Assembly: GCA_040754615.1 (NCBI GenBank)
Contig: JBFMBZ010000044.1
Coordinates: forward strand, 1 to 60,066
From: Candidatus Omnitrophota bacterium
Lineage (GTDB): Bacteria > Omnitrophota > Gorgyraeia > Gygaellales > Profunditerraquicolaceae
DNA: 60,066 bases
Direction: 5' to 3'
Part shown: positions 1,926 to 54,031 of the stretch, piece by piece
Layout: every line of letters begins with the position of its first letter
Numbering within the stretch: the stretch's first letter is position 1
Made by a program: the position numbers and the translations under genes
The notes under the pieces: model-generated
Databases searched by the model: none
Seen by the model: the letters and a program-made list of their open reading frames with translations, nothing else
Told to the model about the DNA's origin: nothing

Positions 1926-4006
1926 GCTTCTGCCCCCCTGGGGAACTCTAAAATAAAGGTAGTGCCTACTCCCACCTGGCTTTTAAAGGAAATCTCGCCT
2001 TTATTCCTCCAGACTAATTGCCTGACGATGGAAAGCCCTAATCCTGTGCCTTTAGTTGGGCCTTTTGTAGTAAAAAACGGCTCAAAAATCCGGTGCATCT
2101 TATCTTCAGCTATACCCTTGCCTGTATCTTCTATTTCAATATGCACCTTGCCATTACTGCTTGAAACCGCGCTGATTTTAATTGTGCCTGTGCCTTCTAT
2201 TGCCTGCCCGGCATTGCGGATAAGGTTAAAGAATATCTGCTGTAGTTCATGCTTGTCTGCCGAAATTCTCGGTAAATCTGAAGGAATGTGCCTTTCTATC
2301 TTGATTCTTTCTAATTCCAGGTCATGGCCTAGCACTGCCAGGGTCTCATCTATTTCTTCAGAGATATTTACCAATTGCGGCCTGAACTCTTTGGAGGGCT
2401 TGGCAAAATTTGAAAGCCGCCTGGTAATATCGGCAATGCGGTTAGATTGGGACAAAGTTTCGTTAAGTATGGCTTCGCACTCCTGAATCACCTCTTCTTT
2501 TGATTTGTTCTGATAAAAACCACGCTGTATGCCTGTTAAGAATACCTGTATCTTGGTATTGATGATATTTAAAGGATTCCCTATTTCATGGTTTATCCCT
2601 GCTGCCATTGTGCCAATTGCTGCGCGGCGCTCTGCCTGGGCTGCTTCGGTAAGAAGCTGGGCATTGCCTACGGCAATGGACTCGGTTCTGGCTAAGTCTA
2701 AAAGCACATCCAGGTCGTCTTTAGTATATCCTTCGTCTGATTTTTTCTTGCCGAGGGAAATAAACCCGATTAAGTCATCGTGAAGCTTAAGCGGCAAGAC
2801 TAAAACTGCTTTTAGCTTAAGCATCTCCTCCTGCACCGCAGGATTTGCTCCGGTAATGCCGTCTATTTGCTTTATAATAGCGGGCTTGTCTGATTTCTTA
2901 AGGTAGCTTACCAGCTTTGATTCAGAAGTAAATGTGATATTTTTATCCTCAAGCCCTAAACTGCTGTAAAGCTGGAATCTATCCTCTACTTTATTTAATA
3001 TAAAGACGACCGAGGTGTAAGGATGGATGGTTTTGCCTAAAAGCTCAAGGGTTGAGCTGATTACCTCATCCAAATTCAAAACCGTGATTACCTCATCAAT
3101 AAACGCCTTCAGTATCTGCTTATATTCATACCTCTTCTGAAAAAGGAATTTATCCGTTGAGTTAATGAGCCAGGTTTCCACAGGGCGCAAGGTAAAGGTA
3201 ATAATCAAAGCGCTGATGGCAAGGGATAAGAGGTTATTCGCCCCTCCCAGGAAGTGCGCCACCAGCATCGCCATTGCCACTACTACACCGAAAACAAATG
3301 CAAACATCCCGGCAAAGACGAGGGATTTCTTGATGACGACTTCTATGTCTAAAAGCTGGTGGCGGAGAATGGCGTAGGTAACAATAAAGGAATATAGTGT
3401 CACGCCGAAGTTACCAAAAGGATAAAGAATATCTATTTTAAACTCCGGTAAAAATGTTGAAGTTCCGCCAATAAAACCGATTAAGAAACCGGTAATTATA
3501 TATTTTGTTTGCATGTGCCTATTTCCACTTGATAGCGGAAGGAATTTAACTAATTCAAAAAAACCTGAAATTACTATCAAAAACCAAAAAGTAGCCAGAA
3601 TACAGAACGGGAGAGTTACCTTATTATAGTATAGAGAGTTAAAAATAAACCTGGTTTTATTTATTAAAATGTTTGTAAAAATGTTTAGATAGAGAAAGAA
3701 TAAACCTATTCCATAAGAAAATAAAATAATGTTTCTGCGTCTCAAATCACAAAATACACTTACTAAATGGAAAAAGGAAATAGCAACAAATATCCCGCCG
3801 ATATGAGCAAACTTCCAACCAAATAGCGCAAGTTCTTCGGTTTTAGATTGCCCTACTATAAAACAACCGATGCCCCAAATAGCTACGGCGATATTAAAAA
3901 CTACCAAAATTCGGTGAATTTTGAGTTTGCCATATACAAAAGTAAACAAAGCTAGTATAAAACAAGAAATTCCGCATGATAAACCAGCTAAAGCGAATAT
4001 ATTCAT
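1922..4006 (-). CDS. Sensor histidine kinase (N-terminal 7TM region, GAF, HisKA, HATPase_c)
   Basis: 694 aa. The first ~290 aa are multiple hydrophobic helices, followed by a GAF-like middle region. H-box AAGINHEIGNPL, N-box FFNLIRNAGQA, G1 DTGKGI and G2 GTGLGLS are present. Confidence 0.85.
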   Translation of the reverse strand: MNIFALAGLSCGISCFILALFTFVYGKLKIHRILVVFNIAVAIWGIGCFIVGQSKTEELALFGWKFAHIGGIFVAISFFHLVSVFCDLRRRNIILFSYGIGLFFLYLNIFTNILINKTRFIFNSLYYNKVTLPFCILATFWFLIVISGFFELVKFLPLSSGNRHMQTKYIITGFLIGFIGGTSTFLPEFKIDILYPFGNFGVTLYSFIVTYAILRHQLLDIEVVIKKSLVFAGMFAFVFGVVVAMAMLVAHFLGGANNLLSLAISALIITFTLRPVETWLINSTDKFLFQKRYEYKQILKAFIDEVITVLNLDEVISSTLELLGKTIHPYTSVVFILNKVEDRFQLYSSLGLEDKNITFTSESKLVSYLKKSDKPAIIKQIDGITGANPAVQEEMLKLKAVLVLPLKLHDDLIGFISLGKKKSDEGYTKDDLDVLLDLARTESIAVGNAQLLTEAAQAERRAAIGTMAAGINHEIGNPLNIINTKIQVFLTGIQRGFYQNKSKEEVIQECEAILNETLSQSNRIADITRRLSNFAKPSKEFRPQLVNISEEIDETLAVLGHDLELERIKIERHIPSDLPRISADKHELQQIFFNLIRNAGQAIEGTGTIKISAVSSSNGKVHIEIEDTGKGIAEDKMHRIFEPFFTTKGPTKGTGLGLSIVRQLVWRNKGEISFKSQVGVGTTFILEFPRGAEA

Positions 4007-6290: not shown

Positions 6291-6365
6291 TGGTGCCGAG
6301 GAGAAGAATCGAACTTCCCACGCCGGCCTTTTCAGGGCCGCGCTCTACCACTGAGCTACCTCGGC
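6291..6365 (-). tRNA. tRNA-Phe (anticodon GAA), CCA encoded
   Basis: The reverse complement folds by hand into a cloverleaf: GCCGAGG-TA-GCTC-AGTGGTA-GAGC-G-CGGCC-CTGAAAA-GGCCG-GCGTG-GGAAG-TTCGATT-CTTCT-CCTCGGC-A-CCA (75 nt). Confidence 0.93.
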
Positions 6366-10265: not shown

Positions 10266-10844
10266 CTATCTTTCCCTGGCTGAATAAACAGATATCTTCA
10301 AAGAGGCGTCTAGCTGCGGCTCACCCTCCCCTCTTCCCTGAATATTTACTTCATTTATGCTTACCAGAAACGGAAAATTATTCCTTAAGGAATAGAGGTA
10401 TTCGCATAACGAGCGGTATTCGCAGGCTAAACGTAATGAAACCGGGAATTCCTCCATTTGGAAACCGGAGGCATTATCCTCCAAGGGCTTCTTGGCAAAA
10501 GGAGAAATGCTTTTTACCTGAATCTTAAGTTTCTTAGCCGCCTCCAACAGATTGTAGATTACTTTCTCATCAGTATCGGGAAAATAGTTTTTAAGGCCGG
10601 AGAGCTCTACTTTCATCTCCTTTACTGCCTGGTTTAATTCCTTTCCCGAAGTCAGCCGGTTTATTTCTTCAATTTGCGACTCAATAAGCCCGAGTTCTTT
10701 TCGCGCCAAAGCATACTGCCTGCCTAAGGGCCGGTACACAACAGCCCAGGCCAGTATCAGAAGGCCAAAGGTAAATATAGAAAGGTAAATTATTTTTTTC
10801 TGCTCTTTTGTCAGTTTATTTAGGGGGAAAATAATTTTTTTCAC
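10266..10844 (-). CDS. Type IV pilus assembly protein PilO-like
   Basis: 192 aa with a single N-terminal TM helix, a coiled coil (ELGLIESQIEEINRL) and a ferredoxin-like C-terminal domain. 4-nt overlap with pilMN. Confidence 0.6.
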   Translation of the reverse strand: MKKIIFPLNKLTKEQKKIIYLSIFTFGLLILAWAVVYRPLGRQYALARKELGLIESQIEEINRLTSGKELNQAVKEMKVELSGLKNYFPDTDEKVIYNLLEAAKKLKIQVKSISPFAKKPLEDNASGFQMEEFPVSLRLACEYRSLCEYLYSLRNNFPFLVSINEVNIQGRGEGEPQLDASLKISVYSARER

Positions 10845-12442
10845 GGCAATTTGAAATCTACGCTGAAATTTAATACCTCGGAATTATTCTCATTTACGCT
10901 CTTTTCTACGGAATTAATATTTGCCCCGGTAAAATAACCGGATTTCTCCATGGCCCCTACGAACCTGGTGAGTATTTCTTCGCGGCCGCTTTCGCTAAGC
11001 CGTAAAGACCCAGTAACGTTCATTATCCCGGTTTTAGCATTTAAAATAAGGCTCTCCAGAAAAACCTGCTTTCCTGCGGCATTACTTATTTTCTTTAATA
11101 TGCCGTATATCGGAGGCTGGGAATCCCGGGCATTGTTTATAAAATTATTCAAACCGTCCACCTTCATCTTCGTATCCTTGATTTCTGATAATGCGCCAAG
11201 ATGTAAGGCAGCGTTCTTAAGCCTCTGGCGGTAAGCCTTAACCCCTGCCCAGGCAACCAGGGAAGAAAAAGCAAGTAACGATACAATAATAAATGCGATT
11301 AAACGCAAAGAAACCTTCTGAATTTTCTCAATCCTTTCGCTGCGGAAGGCCCGCGGCATCAGGTTGAAATTTTCTTTGTAATCTAAAGCTGCGCCCAGGC
11401 TGCCTAAGCCATTAAGCAAATCATCGGGCCCAATAGCAGGACTTTTAATGATTTCATCAGGCACAGAAATCTTAGATACCGCAATCTGTACGTCATTATG
11501 CAAAAATTCATCCAGGTGCGGGATAGATAAGCCAGGGCCGGCAAGGAATAGAGAGTTTACTGCCTGGCCGTTAAATTGCGAGGTGTAATAATTTACGGAG
11601 CGCTTCAATTCCAGCGACAGCCTTTCCAAATCCTGGCGCAAGAGAGAAGAGATTTGAAAAGAGTTCAGTTTATTTTTGTATACGATATTATCCTTTGTAA
11701 CCCCTACCTTAAACAAAACCTCTTCTATTTCTTCTGCGTTTAATTGCACCTTTCCTTTATCCAAAGCAAGCGTTCCCGTAAGGGAATTCCTTAATTTATT
11801 TAACGAAACGGGAAGCTGGCGGAAAAACTCTAATTTATTATCCCTCTCTATTACAAAAAATGAATAATCATCTCCGAGGTGCAGGATGCCGGCAGGCTCA
11901 TTCTTCCTGCCTGATAGATACTTCTCTACTATGCTTATGTAACTTGAGATAAATGGGATAACCGCTACGCAACTTAAGCCCGCTTGTTTTAAAACCAAGA
12001 CTTGCTCTTCTATCTCTTTTTCCTTTGCCGCCAGGCATACGCAATCCAGTAAATTTGTCCCGTCCTCTTTTGTTTTCTGGCCCAGTATCGCGAAATCAAT
12101 GACCGCCTCGTCAATTGCCACAGGCAATTCTTTTTTTATCTGCCATTTTATGGCTTCGGGTATTTCGCTCTCCGGCATCAGGGGTAATAGCAGGCGCTTT
12201 GAGAATATGCTGCCCAAGGCCGGGATAAGGATAGCACCTCGCTCCTGAATCTGGTTAGTGCGCAAAAAATCCCGGATAGCGTTTAAAGAATTCTCTTGGG
12301 GCAGGAGGTTTTTTATCGGTGTAATGGTGAGTGCCTGTACTTGCGGATGAGCCGTAAGCCCAACGTACATCAGCTTAAGGCCGGAACTTACATCTACGAC
12401 AATAAGAGAACTGCTCTTTTTCATCAATATATTTTTAAGCAT
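10841..12442 (-). CDS. Type IV pilus assembly PilM-PilN fusion protein
   Basis: The N-terminal ~350 aa is an actin-like ATPase fold (PilM). It is followed by NLMP, a TM helix (LIAFIIVSLLAFSSLVAWAG) and a periplasmic PilN-like domain. Confidence 0.75.
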   Translation of the reverse strand: MLKNILMKKSSSLIVVDVSSGLKLMYVGLTAHPQVQALTITPIKNLLPQENSLNAIRDFLRTNQIQERGAILIPALGSIFSKRLLLPLMPESEIPEAIKWQIKKELPVAIDEAVIDFAILGQKTKEDGTNLLDCVCLAAKEKEIEEQVLVLKQAGLSCVAVIPFISSYISIVEKYLSGRKNEPAGILHLGDDYSFFVIERDNKLEFFRQLPVSLNKLRNSLTGTLALDKGKVQLNAEEIEEVLFKVGVTKDNIVYKNKLNSFQISSLLRQDLERLSLELKRSVNYYTSQFNGQAVNSLFLAGPGLSIPHLDEFLHNDVQIAVSKISVPDEIIKSPAIGPDDLLNGLGSLGAALDYKENFNLMPRAFRSERIEKIQKVSLRLIAFIIVSLLAFSSLVAWAGVKAYRQRLKNAALHLGALSEIKDTKMKVDGLNNFINNARDSQPPIYGILKKISNAAGKQVFLESLILNAKTGIMNVTGSLRLSESGREEILTRFVGAMEKSGYFTGANINSVEKSVNENNSEVLNFSVDFKLP

Positions 12443-22020: not shown

Positions 22021-24852
22021 CTATCCCGTAAGAGAACATGAGCTTTTTGCTTTTTGAATCAGGTCCTCCTCGCTGCCTGCTTCGTCCGGAAAGACTGAAC
22101 AGCCAAAATGCAGGCTTATCTTTTCAGCTATCCTGCTTGTGCTCAGGTACTCATTAAGCACCTCTTGGAGCCTGGCCTTTACCCTTACGGCATTTTCCTT
22201 ATCGCATTCAGCCAAAATAACAATAATCTCTCCGGTATCTTTAATGACCATATCCCTCTCTTTACGCAATGTCCGGTTTAAGACCGTCTCCATGTCTTCA
22301 AGTATGCCGCGTATCTGTTCGGTGCTCAGTTTCTGCCTAAGCTTATCAAAATCTTGGATAGATACCAGGACTAAAGTCATCTTGACGCTCTTCTTGACCG
22401 CCTCTTTCATGCCGGCGCTTACATATTCCTTGAACAGCTCTTCGGCGCTGTATTTCGGCAAAACAAAACTGAATTTAGTGCCTTTTCCAACCTCACTATC
22501 TATCCAAATCCTTCCCTTGTGCATTTCCACAATATTCTTCACTATGGATAATCCCAGGCCAGTGCCTTTTTCTCCGGGGCCTGCCACGCGGCCAAACTGC
22601 TGGAATTTGTTAAACACAAGGGGCAGGTCTTCTTTAGAAATTCCTACTCCGGTATCGGCTACAGCGCATTCTATCTGGCTGCCTTTGTCATAGACCGCTA
22701 TTTCTATATATCCTTTTTCCGTAAACTTAATGGCATTGCCTAAAAGGTTGGTAAAGACCTGGGTAGTCCTGTCCTTATCAATATATAACTCAGTTTCTTG
22801 TTCCGGTAAAGCTATTTTTAACTCAATGCCCTTTGCCTTGGTTTTTAACTCAAATGAAGAAGCCAGCTGGTTTACTAATTTATTTATGTTCACTAATTCC
22901 CTCTTAAGTTCAATGCGGCCGGCTTCTATTTTAGATATGTCTAAAAGGTCATCTATGATCCTGGATAAGCGGTCTATATTGTCCCTTGAGGTGGCAAGTA
23001 TCCTCTCCTGTTTCTCGTTTATCTCTCCGGTAATCCTGTCCAGGACAATGCTTAAACCCTCCTTGGTAATGGAAAGAGGGGTCCTTAACTCATGAGAGAC
23101 GGTAGAAACAAATTCCGTCTTCATCCGGTCTATCTCTTTTTCTTGCGTGATATCCCTTAAGACCACGACCAATCCAATAACCTTAGAGGCTGCATCTTTT
23201 ACCTGTGCCACCTGGCAGAGTAAAACTAAACTCTCATTGCCTTTGGGCACGGTAATTTCTTCAACAAATGAGCTTTTCTTGTAGCCGTATTTTTTTAACA
23301 AAAGGCCCAGGTTCAGGATTGCGGATTTATTGCTCAGCATATCCATATTAACTTCGGTTTCTGCAGGAAAACCGAACAAGCGCTTCGCCGACGCGTTAAG
23401 CATTACGAGTTGGCCTTGGGCATCAAACATAATGATGCCCTCCAGCATGCTGGCCATCATTGCTTCCATCTTCAGCTTATCTGCGGTAATAGCCTCCTTT
23501 GTCTCCTGCAGGTCCTCCAGCAAATTTAAGGTTGCTTCCTTGCTCTGCTCTAATTCCCGCGTGCGCTCCTTAACTTTTTCTTCAAGGCCTGCTGCCAGTT
23601 CTTGAAGTTTATCCCTGCCTTCCCGGATTTCTTTCTGTTCCCCTTTAATAGTAGCTATCATGTAATTGAATGAGTCTGATAGCTGTTCCAGCTCATCGCC
23701 GGTCCTAATCCGGACTTCATAATCCAGGTTTCCTTTGATAACCTCCTCCGTGGCTTCGTGAAGCTTCTTTATCGGCTTGACGAAAACGCCGCTAAAGAGA
23801 AAGCCTGTCGGTATGACAATCATTATCATTATGCCTGCCAGGCTGAACATCTGAAGCATAAGCGTATTTAAAGGCGCAAATACCTCCTCAACCTCCTGGT
23901 CAACGCTGACATACCAGCGTAAGCCTGCCTTTGACAAAAGAGGGTGTTTGAGCTCGCTGAAAGCACTAAATAGCCCTCCTTTGTGTATATGTGCCTCCTT
24001 TATCACCGACCAGCCTAGCCGGCTTTGCATTAATTTTTGAAAATCCGCTTCGCTGCAGAAATTTGAACTCAGAGGGGCTCCCCCGGGATGAAATATAATC
24101 CGGTTATTGTCGTCAAGCAATACTGCGTGCCCGGTTTTCCCGAGCCCGATATTTTCTAAGGGCGCAAAAAAGGAATTAAGGTCTATGGCCTCTCTGCATA
24201 TGCCGATTAAATTGCCTGCGCTGTCTCTTAAGGGAGAGGCAATGCCGACGCTCGGCTTTCCGGAAGCTCCATCCGCCTCTATGCCGCTTACGAAATCATC
24301 TCCCTTGCCTTGCATAAACGCCTTCTTCCACCAGGTTGCGTCCGCATGGAAAAATCCCGAAGCCTCCCCGGAAGCCGCAACCAGTCCTCCGTGTTTATCA
24401 GTTAAGATTATCTCTAAAACGCGCTGGTCAGCCTGAACCAAGTTTTTGAGGCTTAAGCTTAAGGGGCTGTCAAGGTATGGCTTGATAAGAAGGCCGTATC
24501 GCGCGGGATCCTTCCATTGCCTGTCCATCTCAGAAAAAGAAATCTTCATTTCTTCCTCTGACATATCTTTATACTTCAAGTTAGCATTTAGGACTGCCTC
24601 CTGCCAGAAAGGGCTGCTTAAATGCACCCGCAAATCTTCCAATTCCGCATTGATTATCCTTTCAATTGCCTGCGCCAGTATCCGGGCGTCCTGGACCCTC
24701 TCTTTGCCTATGGTATTGCGCAATAAATTAAAACCCCAGAAATATCCGCAAGCTATGGCTATGGCGAGGATAAGAAAGCTGGTAAGGCAAATAAGGAGGG
24801 TAATCTTTCGCCTGATGCCGGTTTTGTGTTTTATGGGGCGCGGTCCGTTCAT
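22021..24852 (-). CDS. Sensor histidine kinase: TM, Cache-like periplasmic domain, HAMP, coiled coil, PAS, HisKA, HATPase_c, C-terminal degenerate GGDEF-like domain
   Basis: 943 aa. H-box FVSTVSHELRTPL, N-box FTNLLGNAIKFT, G1 DTGVGI and G2 GTGLGLS. The last ~120 aa follow the GGDEF fold pattern (VLVSIQDFDKL...DTGEIIVILAECD...ISLHFGCSVFP) with TGEII in place of GGDEF. Confidence 0.85.
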   Translation of the reverse strand: MNGPRPIKHKTGIRRKITLLICLTSFLILAIAIACGYFWGFNLLRNTIGKERVQDARILAQAIERIINAELEDLRVHLSSPFWQEAVLNANLKYKDMSEEEMKISFSEMDRQWKDPARYGLLIKPYLDSPLSLSLKNLVQADQRVLEIILTDKHGGLVAASGEASGFFHADATWWKKAFMQGKGDDFVSGIEADGASGKPSVGIASPLRDSAGNLIGICREAIDLNSFFAPLENIGLGKTGHAVLLDDNNRIIFHPGGAPLSSNFCSEADFQKLMQSRLGWSVIKEAHIHKGGLFSAFSELKHPLLSKAGLRWYVSVDQEVEEVFAPLNTLMLQMFSLAGIMIMIVIPTGFLFSGVFVKPIKKLHEATEEVIKGNLDYEVRIRTGDELEQLSDSFNYMIATIKGEQKEIREGRDKLQELAAGLEEKVKERTRELEQSKEATLNLLEDLQETKEAITADKLKMEAMMASMLEGIIMFDAQGQLVMLNASAKRLFGFPAETEVNMDMLSNKSAILNLGLLLKKYGYKKSSFVEEITVPKGNESLVLLCQVAQVKDAASKVIGLVVVLRDITQEKEIDRMKTEFVSTVSHELRTPLSITKEGLSIVLDRITGEINEKQERILATSRDNIDRLSRIIDDLLDISKIEAGRIELKRELVNINKLVNQLASSFELKTKAKGIELKIALPEQETELYIDKDRTTQVFTNLLGNAIKFTEKGYIEIAVYDKGSQIECAVADTGVGISKEDLPLVFNKFQQFGRVAGPGEKGTGLGLSIVKNIVEMHKGRIWIDSEVGKGTKFSFVLPKYSAEELFKEYVSAGMKEAVKKSVKMTLVLVSIQDFDKLRQKLSTEQIRGILEDMETVLNRTLRKERDMVIKDTGEIIVILAECDKENAVRVKARLQEVLNEYLSTSRIAEKISLHFGCSVFPDEAGSEEDLIQKAKSSCSLTG

Positions 24853-25510: not shown

Positions 25511-25819
25511 TTAAAATTTTTTCCCGTGCCTGTGCGGCCTGGTCTTATTAAAATCTATTTTCTTGAGCAGGGTCTCTTCCAGGTCAATGCCCCGCGCACC
25601 GCAATAATCAAAAATACGGATGCAGCAATCCGCCAGCTCTTCGGCAACCTCGTCTTTTGTGCCGTGGTTACGCATTGCCTCCAGCGCCTCGGATAATTCC
25701 GAGTGCATTAACGCAATGAGCTCTCCGTCATTACGTTCGTTTTCCCACCATCCTTTTTCTTTGGCAATACGATGGCAAGTGGCGATGAAATCATTTATTT
25801 TCCATACTTTCCTGTTCAT
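25511..25819 (-). CDS. MazG-like nucleoside triphosphate pyrophosphohydrolase (small all-alpha NTP-PPase)
   Basis: 102 aa. ELIALMHSELSEALEAMR...EVAEELADCCIRIFDY is the EExxE...ExxD metal-binding helix pair of the MazG fold. Confidence 0.65.
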   Translation of the reverse strand: MNRKVWKINDFIATCHRIAKEKGWWENERNDGELIALMHSELSEALEAMRNHGTKDEVAEELADCCIRIFDYCGARGIDLEETLLKKIDFNKTRPHRHGKKF

Positions 25820-26258
25820 CGGCTATTCCTTCCTCTACTTTTGGTTCTAATGCTTTTTTTAAGTAGGAATATAACTTCTTTGAAACCAACTCGTTAGCAT
25901 AAGTGCTCGGGGAAGAGACTTCCAGCTTAGTTCTCCCCGGGCCTGCTTCGCTAAAGAATACCCCTACCGGCGTGGTATCTTCCTCTGAAACATAAACCGC
26001 GATTAATTTCTTTGCTGCGTCTTCGGTATAGATATAGGCTCCTATATCAGCCAGCCCTGCTTTTGCGTTCTGGTAGCATACTTCATAACTGCAGTTAAAA
26101 GTCTCGCTGACAGCGTCTTTGCGGCTTGCCTCTATCTCCCTTGTAGAAATCCCCAAAAACCCCCTCGTCTTCTCCTTCGCCGTAGTACAGCCGTAAAAAA
26201 AGAAAAAGGAAGCGGTAAAAACTAAAATTAACCCGAAATTAAGAATTGATAATTTCAT
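25791..26258 (-). CDS. Putative lipoprotein (unknown function)
   Basis: Signal peptide with lipobox FFFYGC. Start set at the ATG (MKLSIL) 7 nt after GGAGG. The track start at 26270 is a TTG inside the ribosome-binding site. Confidence 0.6.
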   Translation of the reverse strand: MKLSILNFGLILVFTASFFFFYGCTTAKEKTRGFLGISTREIEASRKDAVSETFNCSYEVCYQNAKAGLADIGAYIYTEDAAKKLIAVYVSEEDTTPVGVFFSEAGPGRTKLEVSSPSTYANELVSKKLYSYLKKALEPKVEEGIADEQESMENK

Positions 26259-26273
26259 TTTATCCTCCAATTT

Positions 26274-26394: not shown

Positions 26395-28410
26395 CTATTC
26401 ATTTATCACATGCAAAATCTTATCCAGATTTTTGCGCGCCTCTTCTTCTCCCCTCGCCGCAAACTCCCCTGCCTTATGTAATTCCAGCCAATACAGCCCC
26501 GAGGTATCCGGGTGAAGGACCACATCCGCAAGAAGCGCTTCTCTTTGCGCTACTTCAGACTGCAGTATCTCTACGCTGCTAAAAATAATATCAAGTATAT
26601 TGACCTTAAATATACCTTTTAAATGCTCTTTCAAACTGAACCACCTTCGCTTTTTTATATCCTCGGGTATATCCACCTTGATTTCTTTTTTAAGCTTTTC
26701 ATACTGCTTTAAGACATCTTCCCTGGAAGGCGTAACATTAACGGCGATAATCTTTTTTACCCCCATCTTTAAAAGAACCTCGGTAGGCAGCGGATTAATC
26801 ACCCCGCCGTCAAAAAGCATCTCCTCCTTGAATTTAAAAGGCGCAAATACCCCCGGCATACTGCAGCTTGCCATAATCGCATCTACAAGTAAGCCTGTAT
26901 CCAATACCCGGGGCTCTTTCCTTTTCACGTCGCTGGCGATAACTTTCAAAGGAATCTTTGTATCATAAAAAGTTTTTTCTCCCAGGTGTTTTTTCAAAAA
27001 CCGGTGCAGCTTTGTGCCTTTTATAAAACCGAGGCGCGGAAAGGTTAAATCAATGAGGCCCCAGATATGCTTGGGCTCCCTGAATTCTTTGGTAATTTCC
27101 AGTATCTCTGCGCTTGTTTTTCCTATTGCCCAGAGGCAGGCGATAAGGGCGCCTATGCTTGTCCCGGCAATGATATCAATGGGTATCTTTTCTTCCTCAA
27201 TTACCTTTAAGACGCCTATATGGCAGAATCCATAAGCTACCCCTATCCCAAACACAAGCCCTACCTGGCACTCCCCGATTTGCCGGGAAATGCGCCGCAC
27301 CGTGCGGGCGTATTCGCAATTGGGCTCATCCAAGACCAGCTTGTCAGAGCGGCTCAAATCCATATGCGGCAGGGTGGCAAATACATTTTTACCGAGCACG
27401 CCCACCTGCTCAACGTGAGAGAGCTTGGTAAATTTATACTCGTTGATGATAATGTTGATTTTTTCTTCTTCAAAATTGAACTCCTCTTTAAGCCGCTTAA
27501 TTAAATTATGGGTCTTCTCCAGGTCCAGCTCATCGGGACTGGAAAGTATGTGGATTAAATCTGACTGGTTAAGGATGCTGAAGATATTCCTGTCCATCAC
27601 CGAAGGCAAGTCCAGGATTAAATAATGGTAATCATTTACTAGTAAGCTTAAAATTCCCAGAAGGCTCTTTACGCAGGAATACTCTTGTGGGTTATAATGA
27701 AAACAGATTAAGTCTATGCCGAAGCTGTTGGTTAAGATAAATTCCTTTGCCCGCCTGGTATTCTCGGAAAAATCAGCGCAAAGGTTAATGGCCTTTTCTT
27801 GCGTAATTTCCAGCCTTCTGGTGAGGCTGTGCTTTTTATCTTCGGGAAGGACATCAAGGATAATTACCCTTTTACGGGTCTCCTTCTGAATGCTTAATGC
27901 CAGGTTAAGGGCGTAAGCTGTTTTTCCTGCCTGCGAATAAGAGCTGAAGACAGAAATAATCGTACTCTCAAAGATTGTCTTCTGGTGCAGGTCTTTGTGT
28001 TTTAGCCTTCGCGACAATACACGGCTCAAATCAATGGCAAGGTGGGGGATTTTCTGCAGGATAAAATCAAAATCTGACTTGCCTATAGTTAGGACCAGGG
28101 AATCGTTTAAGGCCTGGGACGTAACCGAATGCGGCTCATTGGTAAGAAGCGAAATAATCCCGAAATATTTTCCGCGGTGCAGGTATTCCAATATGGTTTT
28201 ATTTCCGGCATTATCCTGCGTGTAAATTATAACTCTGCCCAGGATAAGCGCGTAAAAACCGCTCGGGACAGAGCCTTCCTGATAGATGATTTCACCCTTC
28301 TTATACTCCCTGAGAGAACTCTTTTCTTTTATAATCCTGATCTGCCGCTCTGAGAGAGAAGAAAATAAAGGGATTTCTTTAAGTATTATATCTTTATTCA
28401 GTAATTCCAT
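26395..28410 (-). CDS. Cyclic-nucleotide-binding domain / ParA-MinD-like P-loop domain / patatin-like phospholipase fusion protein
   Basis: The N-terminal cNMP-binding beta-barrel region (GEIIYQEGSVPSGFYALILGRV...) is assigned by pattern. The middle has IISVFSSYSQAGKTAYALNLA...RVIILDV and YLILDLP (deviant Walker A/B). The C-terminus has GLVFGIGVAYGFCHIGVL (oxyanion Gly-rich motif), GTSIG (GxSxG) and a DGG Asp motif. Confidence 0.8.
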   Translation of the reverse strand: MELLNKDIILKEIPLFSSLSERQIRIIKEKSSLREYKKGEIIYQEGSVPSGFYALILGRVIIYTQDNAGNKTILEYLHRGKYFGIISLLTNEPHSVTSQALNDSLVLTIGKSDFDFILQKIPHLAIDLSRVLSRRLKHKDLHQKTIFESTIISVFSSYSQAGKTAYALNLALSIQKETRKRVIILDVLPEDKKHSLTRRLEITQEKAINLCADFSENTRRAKEFILTNSFGIDLICFHYNPQEYSCVKSLLGILSLLVNDYHYLILDLPSVMDRNIFSILNQSDLIHILSSPDELDLEKTHNLIKRLKEEFNFEEEKINIIINEYKFTKLSHVEQVGVLGKNVFATLPHMDLSRSDKLVLDEPNCEYARTVRRISRQIGECQVGLVFGIGVAYGFCHIGVLKVIEEEKIPIDIIAGTSIGALIACLWAIGKTSAEILEITKEFREPKHIWGLIDLTFPRLGFIKGTKLHRFLKKHLGEKTFYDTKIPLKVIASDVKRKEPRVLDTGLLVDAIMASCSMPGVFAPFKFKEEMLFDGGVINPLPTEVLLKMGVKKIIAVNVTPSREDVLKQYEKLKKEIKVDIPEDIKKRRWFSLKEHLKGIFKVNILDIIFSSVEILQSEVAQREALLADVVLHPDTSGLYWLELHKAGEFAARGEEEARKNLDKILHVINE

Positions 28411-28411
28411 A

Positions 28412-29632
28412 TTATTCTAACTTTGCGTCTCTTGCAACTACCGCAAATTTCTTTGCGCTCTCCCGTACAGTCCTTTTATAAGTAGAGTAATCTACCTCAA
28501 TAAGGCCGAAGCGCGCTCCAAATCCCTTATCCCACTCAAAGTTATCTAAAAGAGACCAGTAGATATAACCCATTACCTTCACGCCTTTAGCCATCGCCCG
28601 GTAGACTTCTGCCAGGTGCGAAGAGATAAATCCCCAGCGCAGCTCGTCATCTTCGGTACAGATACCATTCTCAAGGATAAATACCGGCTTTTTATATTTC
28701 TTTAATTTCAAAAGCAGTTTATAAAGGCCTTGCGGATAAATATCCCAGCCCAGCGAGTTCTTTTTCAATTCGCCATGTTCTTCTTTGCAGACATCAACCA
28801 GCAGGCTCCTGATGCCCCAATTAGCTGCATCCACGATGCTATGCGTATAATAATTAATCCCGATAAAATCAAGGGACCTGCGATGCGATAAAGTATCCAG
28901 GAGGGAAAAATTAAAAGATTTATTCCTTAAGAAAACAGCTACTTTGTTTCTTAAATTCTTCCTGCAGGGGGTAAAATCCTGCAGGTTCTTTGCTATGCTC
29001 ACCGAAGGAGAAGCCAGCCCTCTCGCCTTATAAAGCTGGTGTATTTTCCTGTACGCTCCTATGTGGGCAGAGATTAAATTGCGTTTTACCCTTACTGCGG
29101 AAAGAAGCGACTTCTCCTGGGGCGGCCAGGCTCCTAAAATATAGGCATGATAAATATACACCATAGGCTCATTGATAGTAACCCAGTATTTGACGTGGTC
29201 AGATAAAGCCTGAGTAATAGCCGAAACAAAACGCAGGAAATAGATAATGTTATTTTTATTCTTCCATCCGCCTTTTTGAGCAAACCATATAGGAGAGGTA
29301 AAATGATGCAGCGTGACTATAGGCTCGATATTTCGCTCTCTAAGGCTTACGATAACATCGCGGTAGTGGCTTATTTCCCTTTCGGAGAATACGCCTTCTT
29401 CGGGCTCTACGCGGCTCCATTCGATAGAGAGGCGGTGGGCGTTATGATTAAGGGATTTGGCTAAATCAAAGTCCTGCTTATAAAATTCGTAGTGCCGGCA
29501 GGCGCTTGCCGAAGGCTCTTTTAAGCGCACCCTTCTCTCCCACTCCCACCAGTCGCTGTTAAAGTTATTCCCTTCCACCTGATAGGCGGAAGTAGCAGCG
29601 CCAAAGAAGAAATCTTTAGGGAATTCAATCAT
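28412..29632 (-). CDS. Glycoside hydrolase family 1 (beta-glucosidase/beta-galactosidase)
   Basis: FFFGAATSAYQVEGN, the acid/base motif TINEP, the nucleophile motif ILENG and WSLLDNFEW are all GH1 signatures. Confidence 0.9.
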   Translation of the reverse strand: MIEFPKDFFFGAATSAYQVEGNNFNSDWWEWERRVRLKEPSASACRHYEFYKQDFDLAKSLNHNAHRLSIEWSRVEPEEGVFSEREISHYRDVIVSLRERNIEPIVTLHHFTSPIWFAQKGGWKNKNNIIYFLRFVSAITQALSDHVKYWVTINEPMVYIYHAYILGAWPPQEKSLLSAVRVKRNLISAHIGAYRKIHQLYKARGLASPSVSIAKNLQDFTPCRKNLRNKVAVFLRNKSFNFSLLDTLSHRRSLDFIGINYYTHSIVDAANWGIRSLLVDVCKEEHGELKKNSLGWDIYPQGLYKLLLKLKKYKKPVFILENGICTEDDELRWGFISSHLAEVYRAMAKGVKVMGYIYWSLLDNFEWDKGFGARFGLIEVDYSTYKRTVRESAKKFAVVARDAKLE

Positions 29633-29657
29633 AATAAATACAATTATAGCATCTACA

Positions 29658-29685
29658 AATAAAAAATCCCAACAAAATGTTGGGA
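29658..29685 (-). terminator. Intrinsic terminator forming the riboswitch expression platform
   Basis: Minus strand: TCCCAACA tttt GTTGGGA TTTTTTATTT, ending about 25 nt before the GH1 ATG. Confidence 0.7.
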
Positions 29686-29694
29686 CCTTAAGCA

Positions 29695-29826
29695 GGCCGA
29701 TAAAGGTACGAGACTCATCCCTCCCTTTAGCTTCGGCAACTCAGCCACCTTACTCAAGGTGCTCTTTTGAGGTTAGGTCTGTAAGTTTTGCGTCCCCCAG
29801 TTTCCCGGGGTTTGCCCTTATCGGCC
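29695..29826 (-). promoter_or_regulatory. c-di-GMP-I (GEMM-I) riboswitch aptamer
   Basis: RNA reads AAGGGCAAACC-CCGG-GAAA-CUGG-GGGACGCAAAACUUACAG-ACCUAACC-...-GUAAGGUGGCUGAGUUGCCGA. From memory it aligns block by block with the Vc2 aptamer (GGGCAAACC..GAAA..GGGACGCAAAGCC..CCUAAACC..GGUAGGUAGCGGGGUUACCGA). A GNRA loop and receptor helix are present, plus an outer GGCCGAUAAGG/CCUUUAUCGGCC stem. Confidence 0.85.
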
Positions 29827-29833
29827 TAATTAA

Positions 29834-29862
29834 AGTATACATTAAATCAGAAAGATTTTCAA
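29834..29862 (-). promoter_or_regulatory. Sigma70-type promoter TTGAAA-17 nt-TATACT driving the riboswitch transcript
   Basis: Minus strand: TTGAAA atctttctgatttaatg TATACT ttaatta GGCCGA. The predicted +1 is the first G of the outer riboswitch stem. Confidence 0.55.
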
Positions 29863-29873
29863 GACAGCGGGCT

Positions 29874-30311
29874 CTATCTTCTTTTCTTTTTTACGGGTTC
29901 GGGGTTTAGCTGGGTGCTTAATACCTCCCAGGTCTGGGGGCCGACTTTACCGTCAACTTTAAGGCTGTTGGCCTTCTGAAATTCTTCAATGGCCTTTTTA
30001 GTCATAGGCCCTGCCTTACCGTCTATTTCTCCGGCGTAATAACCCGCGTTCTTCAGGGCAGTTTGAATCTCAATGTTGGTGGGTTTATACGGCCCGGCAG
30101 GCGGCAAAGGCGCGAGGTCCCCTGGCTTTGCGTTTTGCGCCTCGCTAACTTGCGCTTTGGGTTCGGCCGTGATAGCGGGAGAACCGGTCAGAGTGCTTAA
30201 CTCCTCCATAGATAATGGCTCCGGCATTTGCGTAACATCCGTTTCTTTTTGTCCACAACCAAAGACGCAAATACTAAAAAATATGACCATGACAACTACC
30301 GCGTATTTCAT
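29874..30311 (-). CDS. Lipoprotein with C-terminal peptidoglycan-binding (PG_binding_1) domain
   Basis: Lipobox VFGCG. IQTALKNAGYYAGEIDGKAGPMTKKAIEEFQKANSLKVDGKVGPQTW is the PGB1 repeat. Start set at MKYAVV (30311), 6 nt after AGGAGG. Confidence 0.8.
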   Translation of the reverse strand: MKYAVVVMVIFFSICVFGCGQKETDVTQMPEPLSMEELSTLTGSPAITAEPKAQVSEAQNAKPGDLAPLPPAGPYKPTNIEIQTALKNAGYYAGEIDGKAGPMTKKAIEEFQKANSLKVDGKVGPQTWEVLSTQLNPEPVKKKRR

Positions 30312-30336
30312 TAAACTCCTCCTTCCATACAGATGG

Positions 30337-30411
30337 AACACCGACCCTTCCTTTAAGGTCGGGTGTTAACTGCCAGGCGAAACACCGGCCCAACCGATAG
30401 GGCCGGGTGTT
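30337..30411. repeat. Two tandem, sequence-related stem-loops (AACACCCGRCC...GGYCGGTGTT)
   Basis: Hairpins at 30337-30367 and 30381-30411 share the AACACC/GGTGTT stem base. They lie between the MFS stop and the next ribosome-binding site. Neither has a strong U-tract. Confidence 0.55.
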
Positions 30412-52942: not shown

Positions 52943-54031
52943 TCAACTAAAAACCCTGTCGATTATCCCTCCTCCGACAACGGTCTCTTTATCGTAAAAT
53001 ACCGCAGACTGGCCGGGCGTAACGGCAAATTGCGGCTGTTTCAAACTGATTTTAATTTTCCCCTTTGACTTTAATATATATGCGGCTGCTTCCCTGTGAT
53101 TATACCTTATCCTTACCTTAAGGGCAACCCTCTTCTTTATGCTACTACCGACAAAATGCGCATCATGGACTATAAATTCTTTTTTTTCTGCCTCATCTTT
53201 TCTTCCCGCTACAATAGAGTTTTCCTTCGCGTCAATATTAGTTATGTATAAAGGGTAGCCTGCGGCCACCCCCAGGCCTTCACGCTGGCCGATAGTATAA
53301 TAAGCAATCCCCTTATGCTCACCCAAGATGTTGCCTCGCGTATCTAAAATCATCCCGGGCCTGTGGCCTGAATCCAGCCTCTCTTTTAAGAATTTACGGT
53401 AATCCGTATCTGCAAGAAAACATATCTCCTGGCTGGCGGGCTTCTCGGCCGTAGCTAAACCAAACCCCCTTGCTAATTGCCGCACCTGTTGCTTGGTATA
53501 ATTACCCAGCGGAAAAATTATGTGCCTGAGCTGCCTTTGATTCAGGCGATATAAGAAATATGACTGGTCTTTATGTTTGTCCTTAGCTTTTTTCAAAAAA
53601 TAGACGGGAGACCGGCGACCGGTAACCGGTGCCCGGGAAATCCTGGCATAATGGCCTGTGGCTAAGAATTTGGCGCCCAAAGAAAGGGCCTTTTTCAACA
53701 AAATATCAAATTTAAGGTGCTGGTTGCACCTTACGCAAGGGTTAGGGGTCCTGCCGAGCTTATATTCATTTATGAAGTTGTCTATCACAAACTCCTGCAG
53801 GGGCTTTCGCATATTGACTACATAATGCCTTATCCCTAATTTATGGCAGACGCGCCTGGCATCTTCTATGCCGGAAATACCGCAACAAGCAGGCTTCTTG
53901 CGCTCTGGGAAGTCAATAGAAAAACACATGGTCATCCCAATAACCTCATAGCCATGCTTTACCAATAAGGCAGCAGCTACCGAAGAGTCAACTCCTCCGC
54001 TCATTGCTACGGCAACCCGTTCTTTTCTCAT
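52943..54031 (-). CDS. mnmA: tRNA 2-thiouridine(34) synthase
   Basis: VAVAMSGGVDSSVAAALL PP-loop, GRTPNPCVRCN and ATGHYAR motifs. 362 aa. Confidence 0.9.
   Translation of the reverse strand: MRKERVAVAMSGGVDSSVAAALLVKHGYEVIGMTMCFSIDFPERKKPACCGISGIEDARRVCHKLGIRHYVVNMRKPLQEFVIDNFINEYKLGRTPNPCVRCNQHLKFDILLKKALSLGAKFLATGHYARISRAPVTGRRSPVYFLKKAKDKHKDQSYFLYRLNQRQLRHIIFPLGNYTKQQVRQLARGFGLATAEKPASQEICFLADTDYRKFLKERLDSGHRPGMILDTRGNILGEHKGIAYYTIGQREGLGVAAGYPLYITNIDAKENSIVAGRKDEAEKKEFIVHDAHFVGSSIKKRVALKVRIRYNHREAAAYILKSKGKIKISLKQPQFAVTPGQSAVFYDKETVVGGGIIDRVFS

Follow-up and report, generated by a model that had tools for sequence, protein, structure and literature searches.

A canonical c-di-GMP-I aptamer with an unusual predicted expression platform upstream of a GH1-patatin operon in Omnitrophota

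The 60,066-nucleotide (nt) stretch of DNA analysed here, referred to below as the window, comes from a Candidatus Omnitrophota bacterium, and the element of interest is an RNA leader on its minus strand, which lies between a gene for a PG-binding protein and an operon that begins with genes for a glycoside hydrolase of family 1 (GH1) and a patatin-type phospholipase. The leader contains a canonical riboswitch aptamer of the cyclic di-GMP class I (c-di-GMP-I, or GEMM-I). In its predicted free fold a long helix that encloses the whole aptamer competes with the ligand pocket, and in most related leaders this helix appears to serve as a terminator stem (T1) that c-di-GMP would keep from forming, which amounts to ON logic. 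In the window the operon would be driven by a promoter of its own, and control of GH1 and patatin by the riboswitch is here at most partial. Taken as a whole, this account is the one that we favour, with a confidence only a little above even.

The features that bear on the identity of the element are the following.
29862 to 29834, minus strand: promoter P1, with the -35 hexamer TTGAAA (29862-29857), a 17-nt spacer and the -10 hexamer TATACT (29839-29834).
29826 to 29732, minus strand: c-di-GMP-I (GEMM-I) aptamer, RF01051, 72.7 bits.
29735-29730, minus strand: 3' strand of the local helix P1a, made up of C93 and G94 (29735-29734), an AA bulge, and a G and a C (29731-29730).

The aptamer was identified by a cmscan search of the whole window, in which the match to RF01051 reaches 72.7 bits, the gathering score being 35 (E = 2.3e-12), and spans model positions 1-87 of 87 without truncation; a search confined to this region, with permissive filters, gives the same result. 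One further match in the window passes the gathering score of its family, and this is a tRNA gene (6294-6365, minus strand, RF00005, 65.5 bits). The conserved blocks are all present in the alignment, namely GGGCAAACC, the GAAA tetraloop and GGGACGCAAA, the CCUAA...UAAGG helix, and GGCUGAGUUGCCGAA. These are the blocks from which the first-pass annotation of this DNA had proposed a GEMM-I aptamer, and the full-length covariance match bears the proposal out.

In the numbering of the Vc2 riboswitch, transferred through the covariance model (CM) alignment, the nucleotides that contact the ligand are G20 at 29816, A47 at 29789 and C92 at 29736, all of them canonical, and the core pairs G21-C46 and C22-G45 fall at 29815-29790 and 29814-29791. 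The P1b hairpin (29810-29795) carries a GAAA loop (CCCCGG-GAAA-CUGGGG), and the receptor half reads GUAAGG in the window copy, the family form being AUAUGG. Pair 22-45 varies among relatives, in which it occurs as C22-G45, U22-A45 and U22.G45. The local helix P1a, in which GGCCG of the 5' strand pairs with C93, G94 and, beyond the AA bulge, with the G and the C, comprises 4-5 base pairs (bp) and forms in the fold constrained to the ligand-bound state; its layout is that of the Vc2 holo structure (G14-C93, C13-G94) and of helix P1 in the consensus structure of RF03167. Each feature by which membership of the c-di-GMP-I class can be tested was found, whether the score, the contact bases G20, A47 and C92, the hairpins with their GNRA tetraloop and receptor, or P1a, and by these features the element is a canonical c-di-GMP-I aptamer whose expected ligand is c-di-GMP.

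Two neighbouring types were considered and excluded. The change G20A defines the riboswitch types that recognize cyclic GMP-AMP (cGAMP), and wild-type Vc2 discriminates against cGAMP; a cGAMP riboswitch (GEMM-Ib) would need an A at the equivalent of Vc2 G20, and the window has a G at 29816. The c-di-GMP-I-GGC variant (RF03167) would need G47 (GCGAA), and the window has GCAAA. Three relatives (L195, L210 and L211) score best on RF03167 despite A47, probably because that model includes P1.

Promoter P1, which had also been proposed at first pass as TTGAAA-17-TATACT, was recovered by a consensus scan with 10/12 consensus positions matched, and its hexamers and spacing recur in 29 of the 30 related GH1- or patatin-linked leaders that have upstream sequence. 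The predicted start (~29828-29826) lies at the foot of the outer helix described below, and P1 is predicted to be the sigma-70-type promoter of the riboswitch leader.

Related leaders were collected from a GH1 alignment scan with one genome per species, which gave 19 close Omnitrophota loci, from exact-protein look-ups, which added ten, and from a metagenome pattern scan for the aptamer 5' strand, which gave 120 loci, ~40 of them being leaders of this type. In all, the collection came to about 51 related leaders from Omnitrophota, and 45 were analysed in detail; 18 of the 20 same-type leaders tested pass the Rfam cut-off. The aptamer is found upstream of GH1 in 12/30 orthologous loci (window counted), and in the look-up set it is present in the 6 loci with a long gap between the PG-binding and GH1 genes and in none of the 4 with a short gap. 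The GH1 and/or patatin gene follows in 31/45 leaders. Some leaders stand directly before patatin without GH1 (L120, L130 and L151), another keeps the riboswitch before a GH1 gene that has no patatin gene (L210), and in two (L018 and L115) a HisKA fragment and a response regulator are inserted before GH1; the proteins encoded by the GH1 genes behind the module are only 53-69% identical across leaders. Other genes, for example one for a zinc-ribbon protein with an M20 peptidase, follow in 14/45. Of the 27 leaders whose upstream sequence extends to 300 nt or more, 26 have a PG-binding gene 45-200 nt upstream on the same strand, and since the leader thus occupies one syntenic slot just behind this gene, its adjacency to the operon is not in itself proof of control in cis.

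A second subgroup of GEMM-I leaders with an enclosing helix was also encountered (L087, L123, L198, L155 and others), in which the promoter has the form TTGcc...TATATT, a T1 T-run is present and T2 and P2, the terminator and promoter described below, are mostly missing; these leaders precede a 100-amino acid (aa) zinc-ribbon protein and an M20 peptidase, and L112 precedes an 866-aa protein without a Pfam match. In L201 (1904-2242) and L210 (~520-950) an extra open reading frame (ORF) for a small membrane protein lies between the PG-binding gene and the riboswitch promoter.

The competing folds of the leader involve three further segments.
29828-29815, minus strand: 5' strand of the outer helix, UAGGCCGAUAAGGG, paired in the minimum free energy (MFE) structure.
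29706-29693, minus strand: its partner in that structure, CCUUUAUCGGCCUG, which forms the 3' strand of the helix.
29729-29724, minus strand: decoy UAAAGG, which is rich in purines, mimics the 5' strand and lies a short way upstream of the 3' strand.

The outer stem GGCCGAUAAGGG/CCUUUAUCGGCC is present in the MFE structure of the window as a 14-bp helix, and the leader as a whole folds at z = -5.5 relative to shuffled sequences. The helix recurs in the MFE structures of 43/45 relatives, and in the ~51 leaders the 3' strand offers 11 nt of exact or near-exact (wobble) complementarity. One leader that was not retrieved by the search pattern, L201, has a compensatory change from G-C to A-U in this helix, and wobble changes are seen in others.

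The role of this helix can be read from the structure of Vc2, where in the holo form P1a consists of G14-C93, C13-G94, A12-U96 and G11-C97, P1b contains G21-C46 and C22-G45, and residues 15-19 make up the junction; ligand binding requires G20's Watson-Crick edge as well as the G21-C46 pair. Helix P1 is drawn in the same way in the consensus structure of RF03167, where the six nucleotides that precede 'GC' have no partners. When the leaders are mapped onto this numbering, GCCG corresponds to positions 11-14, AUAAA or AUAAG to 15-19 and GG to 20-21, and the outer helix is seen to consume the 5' strand of P1a (GCCG), the 5-nt junction, G20 and G21, that is, the Vc2-equivalent positions 11-21. This pairing makes it, by homology with Vc2, an anti-aptamer helix which is mutually exclusive with the ligand pocket, and not a closing P1. 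The stem that had been annotated at first pass as GGCCGAUAAGG/CCUUUAUCGGCC is thus a real feature of the MFE structure, while the role of aptamer-closing stem assigned to it has to be given up, since it pairs positions 11-21. An outer stem acting as a ligand-stabilised P1 in an OFF switch was rejected on account of the same Vc2 holo pairs.

What lies beyond the helix in the relatives suggests what it does. A T-run (at least 6 T in 8 positions) starts 0-3 nt past the 3' strand of the outer helix in 30/45 leaders, against a background of 3.8% at random positions in the same loci, and it is present in 10/14 of the leaders that precede other genes, which are mostly without T2 and P2. From a T-run placed directly after the enclosing helix we infer that this helix is the stem of an intrinsic terminator, T1, in most relatives. 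The enclosing helix excludes the pocket, so that c-di-GMP should prevent T1, and the family anatomy points to c-di-GMP ON logic.

The decoy would give the terminator strand an alternative partner in the bound state. Its local partner is the CCUUUA segment of the 3' strand, and the resulting hairpin, with its loop at 29723-29707, is predicted for the window copy as well as for most relatives. In folds whose pocket is constrained to the holo pairs of Vc2, the 3' strand is set free and pairs with the decoy in 38/45 leaders. Nucleotides that flank the decoy and the 3' strand covary, the mean extension being 1.14 compared to 0.79 in permuted sets; of 1000 permutations, 8 gave a value as high as that observed. 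A leader peptide was considered for the same region, where GGGAGGG is followed by an AUG at 29717 that begins an ORF of 21 codons; in relatives such as L089 the frame stops after 2 codons, and the ORF was taken as a chance occurrence.

Two more elements lie between the outer helix and the GH1 gene, and they overlap each other.
29689 to 29661, minus strand: terminator T2, found by a terminator scan, with the stem (AAGG)UCCCAACA / UGUUGGGA(UUUU) followed by U6.
29672 to 29643, minus strand: promoter-like element P2, with -35 TTGGGA (29672-29667), an 18-nt spacer and the extended -10 TGcTATAAT (29651-29643).

The stem of T2 (29689..29663) is a 12-pair hairpin of 8-12 bp, its U-tract runs to 29661, 28 nt before the GH1 ATG, and its energy is -9.9 kcal/mol for the core and -13.3 kcal/mol for the extended stem; with a G+C-containing stem followed by a U-tract, it is predicted to be an intrinsic (rho-independent) terminator. 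The clean U6 terminator of the first-pass annotation is thus found where it had been placed, and what does not hold is its role as part of the switch, since it occurs in loci that have no riboswitch and its pair probabilities are ~1 in the models of the free and bound states alike. No antiterminator for T2 was found by eye or by constrained folding with the decoy, GGGAGGGAU, the aptamer segment UGGGUUG or the outer-helix strands as candidate partners, which yield only unconserved matches of 4-5 bp. In GH1 loci without the riboswitch (L006, L009, L016, L204, L205 and others) a hairpin of the form TCCC(G/A)(A/G)CA...TGTTGGGA-Tn directly follows the PG-binding gene.

Promoter-like element P2 was found by scanning with 10/12 matches and the TG of an extended -10. 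It sits between T2 and GH1, 10 nt before the ATG, with its -35 hexamer inside the 3' arm of T2. In GH1 loci, whether or not they have the riboswitch, the motif TGnTATAAT stands 6-10 nt ahead of the ATG; among the GH1/patatin leaders it occurs in 24/31, mostly with TTGGGA at a distance of 17-18 nt, and T2 occurs in 30/31. In L012 the 5' arm of the T2 hairpin has been lost and TTGGGA is kept 17-18 nt from TGcTATAAT. On the basis of its hexamers, spacing and conservation, P2 is predicted to be a sigma-70-type promoter. The presence of T2 in riboswitch-less loci, together with the position of the P2 -35 hexamer in its 3' arm, argues that T2 is ancestral and that the module of P1, aptamer and T1 was inserted upstream of it; on this comparison of loci, T2 is a ligand-independent ancestral terminator of the upstream PG-binding gene and not part of the switch. 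A conserved P2 between T2 and GH1 also means that the operon would not be dependent on read-through from P1.

The anatomy of the leader had suggested a simpler explanation, in which the outer stem is a ligand-stabilised P1, T2 is the regulated terminator, the operon is transcribed by read-through from P1, and c-di-GMP acts as an OFF signal as in Cd1 of Clostridioides difficile, a GEMM-I switch of the OFF type whose aptamer and terminator exist side by side, the ligand promoting termination. All the pieces that it calls for are there, in the right order, but it would have the holo aptamer give up G20, G21 and the junction to the outer stem, it offers no pairing that competes for either arm of a T2 that forms with a probability of ~1 in both states, and it accounts neither for T2 in loci without a riboswitch nor for a conserved promoter downstream of T2. 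This explanation is judged unlikely.

Motifs like that of P2 are also found elsewhere in the window, TGcTATAAT or TGgTATAAT lying 10-13 nt before the ATGs of the genes at 10841-12442 and 52943-54031 (minus strand). A motif resembling a Shine-Dalgarno (SD) sequence is present at only ~8/42 crude gene starts in the window, and the source organism may often make mRNAs with very short leaders and initiate translation independently of an SD site; the missing SD site of GH1 was considered as an argument against translation of read-through transcripts, and the argument fails on the same count of gene starts. In L211 (~900-1200), L002 (~3830-4000) and L089 (after its TGGTATAAT) the P2 -10 and the GH1 ATG are set apart by a structured insert 150-300 nt long. 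These inserts share long hairpins and the motif AAGTGAG..CA.AAyTTAyGGA...GAACrTAArTT, and no Rfam family reached its cut-off on them.

The mechanism that we favour can be put together from these parts. The aptamer would be transcribed from its own sigma-70-type promoter P1. With no ligand, the 5' strand GCCGAUAAGGG would be free to zip onto the distal strand CCUUUAUCGGC in a helix of 11-14 bp that encloses the whole aptamer; with c-di-GMP bound, the 5' nucleotides would be held in the pocket and in the local P1a (G14-C93, C13-G94), and the distal strand would be parked on the UAAAGG decoy. The choice could follow a toehold scheme, GCCG nucleating on CGGC and displacing the decoy when there is no ligand, and being held in P1a when there is. 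In most relatives the enclosing helix and its U-tract would then form T1, and c-di-GMP would act as an anti-terminator with ON logic of the pilM type. In the window, transcripts from P1 would all run to T2, as would read-through from the PG-binding gene, and GH1 and patatin would most likely be transcribed mainly from P2, with a short mRNA leader. The riboswitch would add at most a modulation by c-di-GMP, through leakage past T2 or through polymerase traffic into P2, and the coupling of ligand to output in this copy would be either weakened or achieved by a route that the sequence does not show.

Several observations weigh against this mechanism, and the most direct concerns the window itself, where the outer helix is followed by CUGCUUAAGG (CUU AAGG), with T at 3 of 8 positions in place of a U-tract, so that T2, which begins 3 nt past the outer helix, is the only terminator in the leader and the family mechanism is not directly transferable to this copy. 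The nearest relatives are also weak-tailed (L201, CCAUUAAUUUAAG; L203/L110, GUUAAUUUGUU). Even where T1 is complete, simple read-through control is questionable, T2 following T1 in 30/31 GH1/patatin leaders. A terminator stem that encloses 100-200 nt is unusual. The bound-state model is 11-20 kcal/mol less stable than the free state in most leaders (median 18; window 16), a gap so large that the decision of the switch would have to be kinetic. The covariation of the outer helix is thin, amounting to one compensatory pair and one A.C mismatch (L210), and formal covariation is limited in any case by a 5' strand that is fixed by aptamer function and, in the metagenome leaders, by the search pattern. 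The decoy statistic is modest, and shuffled insertions pair about equally often. Binding of the ligand, the ends of the transcripts and their termination are likewise predictions.

The missing U-tract raises the question of whether the window copy does anything at all. It could be functionally silent, in that the aptamer still binds c-di-GMP with no effect on expression, as reported for Bc1 of Bacillus thuringiensis, whose leader has two tandem rho-independent terminators, a ligand-responsive upstream one and an unresponsive downstream one that masks the response and leaves none in vivo. The loss of the T1 tail in the window, its weakness in the closest relatives (L201, L203/L110) and the insensitivity of T2 to the state of the aptamer would all fit. 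Yet the copy has an intact 72.7-bit aptamer, 14-bp helix, decoy and P1, which points to a retained function, and the module has been kept in front of GH1 proteins as divergent as those described above; both argue for selection, and a silent copy appears improbable.

If the copy is functional, its target need not be the operon. Promoter, aptamer and strong terminator form a closed unit, with P2 after it, and the PG-binding gene that is always directly upstream has no terminator of its own, so that the RNA could act as a transcript of ~165 nt from P1 to T2, or as the 3' untranslated region (UTR) of the PG-binding mRNA, and serve as a c-di-GMP-binding small RNA (sRNA), a sponge or a switch of RNA stability, whether its own or that of the message upstream, while the operon is transcribed from P2. 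Precedents exist in the Bdellovibrio merRNA and in sRNAs that end in Vc2 and are stabilised by it, in which a c-di-GMP-I aptamer belongs to a non-coding RNA or a 3' element. The same module, with T1 and without T2 and P2, nevertheless precedes other genes as an ordinary 5' leader, and its association with the operon outlasts the loss of GH1, the loss of patatin and the two-gene insertion in L018/L115. A stand-alone or 3'-end role is for these reasons doubtful, if somewhat less so than the silent copy.

The overlap between T2 and P2 allows another route to the operon, in which a working T1, terminating transcripts when no ligand is bound, would leave P2 undisturbed, whereas c-di-GMP, by permitting read-through of T1 into T2, would bring polymerases that occlude P2 and so have a net negative effect on GH1 and patatin. 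The U-tract of T2 lies inside the P2 spacer and its 3' arm is the P2 -35, the arrangement of T1, T2 and P2 is kept in most GH1/patatin leaders, and occlusion would account for a constitutive T2 behind a switchable T1. But the argument is purely one from geometry and does not extend to the window, where the T1 U-tract is missing, and riboswitch-controlled interference between tandem promoters was not found in the literature searched; as the explanation of the system it is improbable. A broader idea, that the family represents a novel GEMM-I platform in which a terminator helix made from the first bases of the transcript encloses the aptamer, a decoy guards the bound fold, and read-through into T2 and P2 sets the output of the operon by promoter occlusion or two-step attenuation, is put forward tentatively, as rather less improbable than any one of these alternatives though still not to be expected; such a platform is not described for GEMM-I in the literature searched.

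The claim made at first pass that the riboswitch governs the operon is therefore retained in part. In its favour are the leader's own promoter, its position on the coding strand and its linkage to GH1 in 12/30 loci; what counts against it is that the operon has its own P2, that T2 is ligand-independent and that the T1 U-tract is missing.

The genes on either side of the leader are these.
28412-29632, minus strand: GH1 glycoside hydrolase, 406 aa, Pfam PF00232 at 279 bits.
26395-28410, minus strand: cNMP_binding/ParA-like/patatin phospholipase, 671 aa, from Pfam.
29874-30341, minus strand: PG_binding_1 gene, from Pfam, the upstream neighbour, with its stop codon at 29876-29874.

The GH1 protein has both catalytic motifs, NEP154 and ENG321, and is 100% identical in a protein search to an NCBI protein from a Candidatus Omnitrophota metagenome-assembled genome. 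Neither a signal peptide nor an SD site before the ATG at 29632 is evident, and the protein does not reach the cut-off of the NCBIfam beta-glucosidase equivalog. A single nucleotide separates its stop codon from the start of the patatin gene, as annotated at first pass and as upheld by the Pfam gene calls, and the patatin gene comes after GH1 in most orthologous loci. The patatin protein contains the motifs GTSIG416 and DGG534 of a Ser-Asp dyad. It had been described as a cyclic-nucleotide-gated lipase, and the cNMP_binding and patatin domains are indeed both present. The phosphate-binding cassette of CAP/PKA-type domains canonically contains a Glu and an Arg; the cassette found here, FGIISLLTNEPHSVTSQA (residues ~80-100), is atypical in lacking both, so that gating by a cyclic nucleotide cannot be taken for granted. 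In the ParA-like middle domain the P-loop is deviant (SQAGKT).

Between the PG-binding stop codon and promoter P1 no terminator is present, so that PG-binding transcripts would also enter the riboswitch and T2. In most orthologous loci the patatin gene is followed by genes for a 159-aa protein without a Pfam or NCBIfam match and a small MazG-like protein (25511-26270, minus strand, in the window), the conserved block being GH1-patatin-unknown-MazG with MFS and PG-binding genes in front. Four genes downstream of patatin, on the same strand (22021-24852, minus), lies a sensor kinase of dCache-HAMP-PAS-HisKA-HATPase architecture, with a GGDEF-family domain at its C-terminal end (35.9 bits); as this domain has no GG[DE]EF motif, it is probably not an active diguanylate cyclase. 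In PADLOC and NCBIfam scans nothing above cut-off placed the operon in a defence system.

The significance of the element lies first in where it is found. It places RNA-level sensing of c-di-GMP in Omnitrophota, an uncultured phylum of very small cells, and a known riboswitch class thereby gains a member whose expression platform is unusual, in a phylum about which little is known; neither c-di-GMP riboswitches in Omnitrophota nor the GH1-patatin operon were found in the literature searched. The target, a cytoplasmic GH1 glycosidase with a multidomain patatin lipase and two conserved small genes, is outside the usual set of motility, pili and matrix genes, and suggests a c-di-GMP-linked module of lipid or glycolipid turnover. 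The ~51 leaders constitute a natural experiment, with aptamers that have or lack the T1 U-tract and have or lack T2 and P2, in which the grafting of a riboswitch onto a terminator-promoter junction can be tested. They also provide a caution for annotation, in that an order of aptamer, hairpin and gene does not in itself establish control.

Among known systems, the patatin domain is closest to the RssA type, with weak similarity to the cGAMP-activated lipase of the cyclic-oligonucleotide-based antiphage signalling system (CBASS), all scores being far below curated cut-offs; the window protein differs from these lipases in its combination of cNMP_binding, ParA-like and patatin domains, and no CBASS partner genes were found. 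The merRNA resembles the leader in being a discrete transcript in which an aptamer lies between a promoter and a terminator and possibly does not act on a downstream ORF, but it has no conserved downstream ORF, whereas the operon of the window is conserved and related modules act as ordinary leaders. Like Cd1, the window has a 5' leader in which an intrinsic terminator comes after a GEMM-I aptamer; it differs in that no antiterminator of T2 was found and in that its switchable helix excludes the pocket. The succession of T1 and T2 in most relatives recalls the tandem terminators of Bc1, except that in Omnitrophota T2 predates the riboswitch and overlaps a promoter, and T1 is the aptamer-enclosing helix, without a U-tract in the window.

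The closest relationships are with Vc2 and pilM. Vc2 of Vibrio cholerae, the type example of RF01051, shares with the window the P1b hairpin with GAAA, the P2 hairpin with its receptor-like CCUAA/UAAGG, the contact bases G20, A47 and C92, and a P1a with a bulged A. The window differs in having a 28-nt insertion between the 3' core of the aptamer (GCC, 29737-29735) and the distal strand that pairs with the 5' half of the pocket; in addition, Vc2 is a translational OFF switch, while the Omnitrophota family looks transcriptional and ON. In this respect it resembles the pilM GEMM-Ib ON-switch of Geobacter metallireducens, a cGAMP riboswitch in which aptamer and terminator folds are mutually exclusive and the ligand prevents the terminator, and mutually exclusive folds of this kind are predicted for the Omnitrophota leaders too. 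The two systems reach this logic from opposite sides of the aptamer, for the pilM terminator uses the 3' aptamer-stabilising strand, whereas in the Omnitrophota family the terminator would use the 5' strand and enclose the aptamer, with a decoy to hold the terminator 3' strand. They also differ in specificity, the contact base being A and the ligand cGAMP in pilM, and the contact base being G20 and the expected ligand c-di-GMP in the window.

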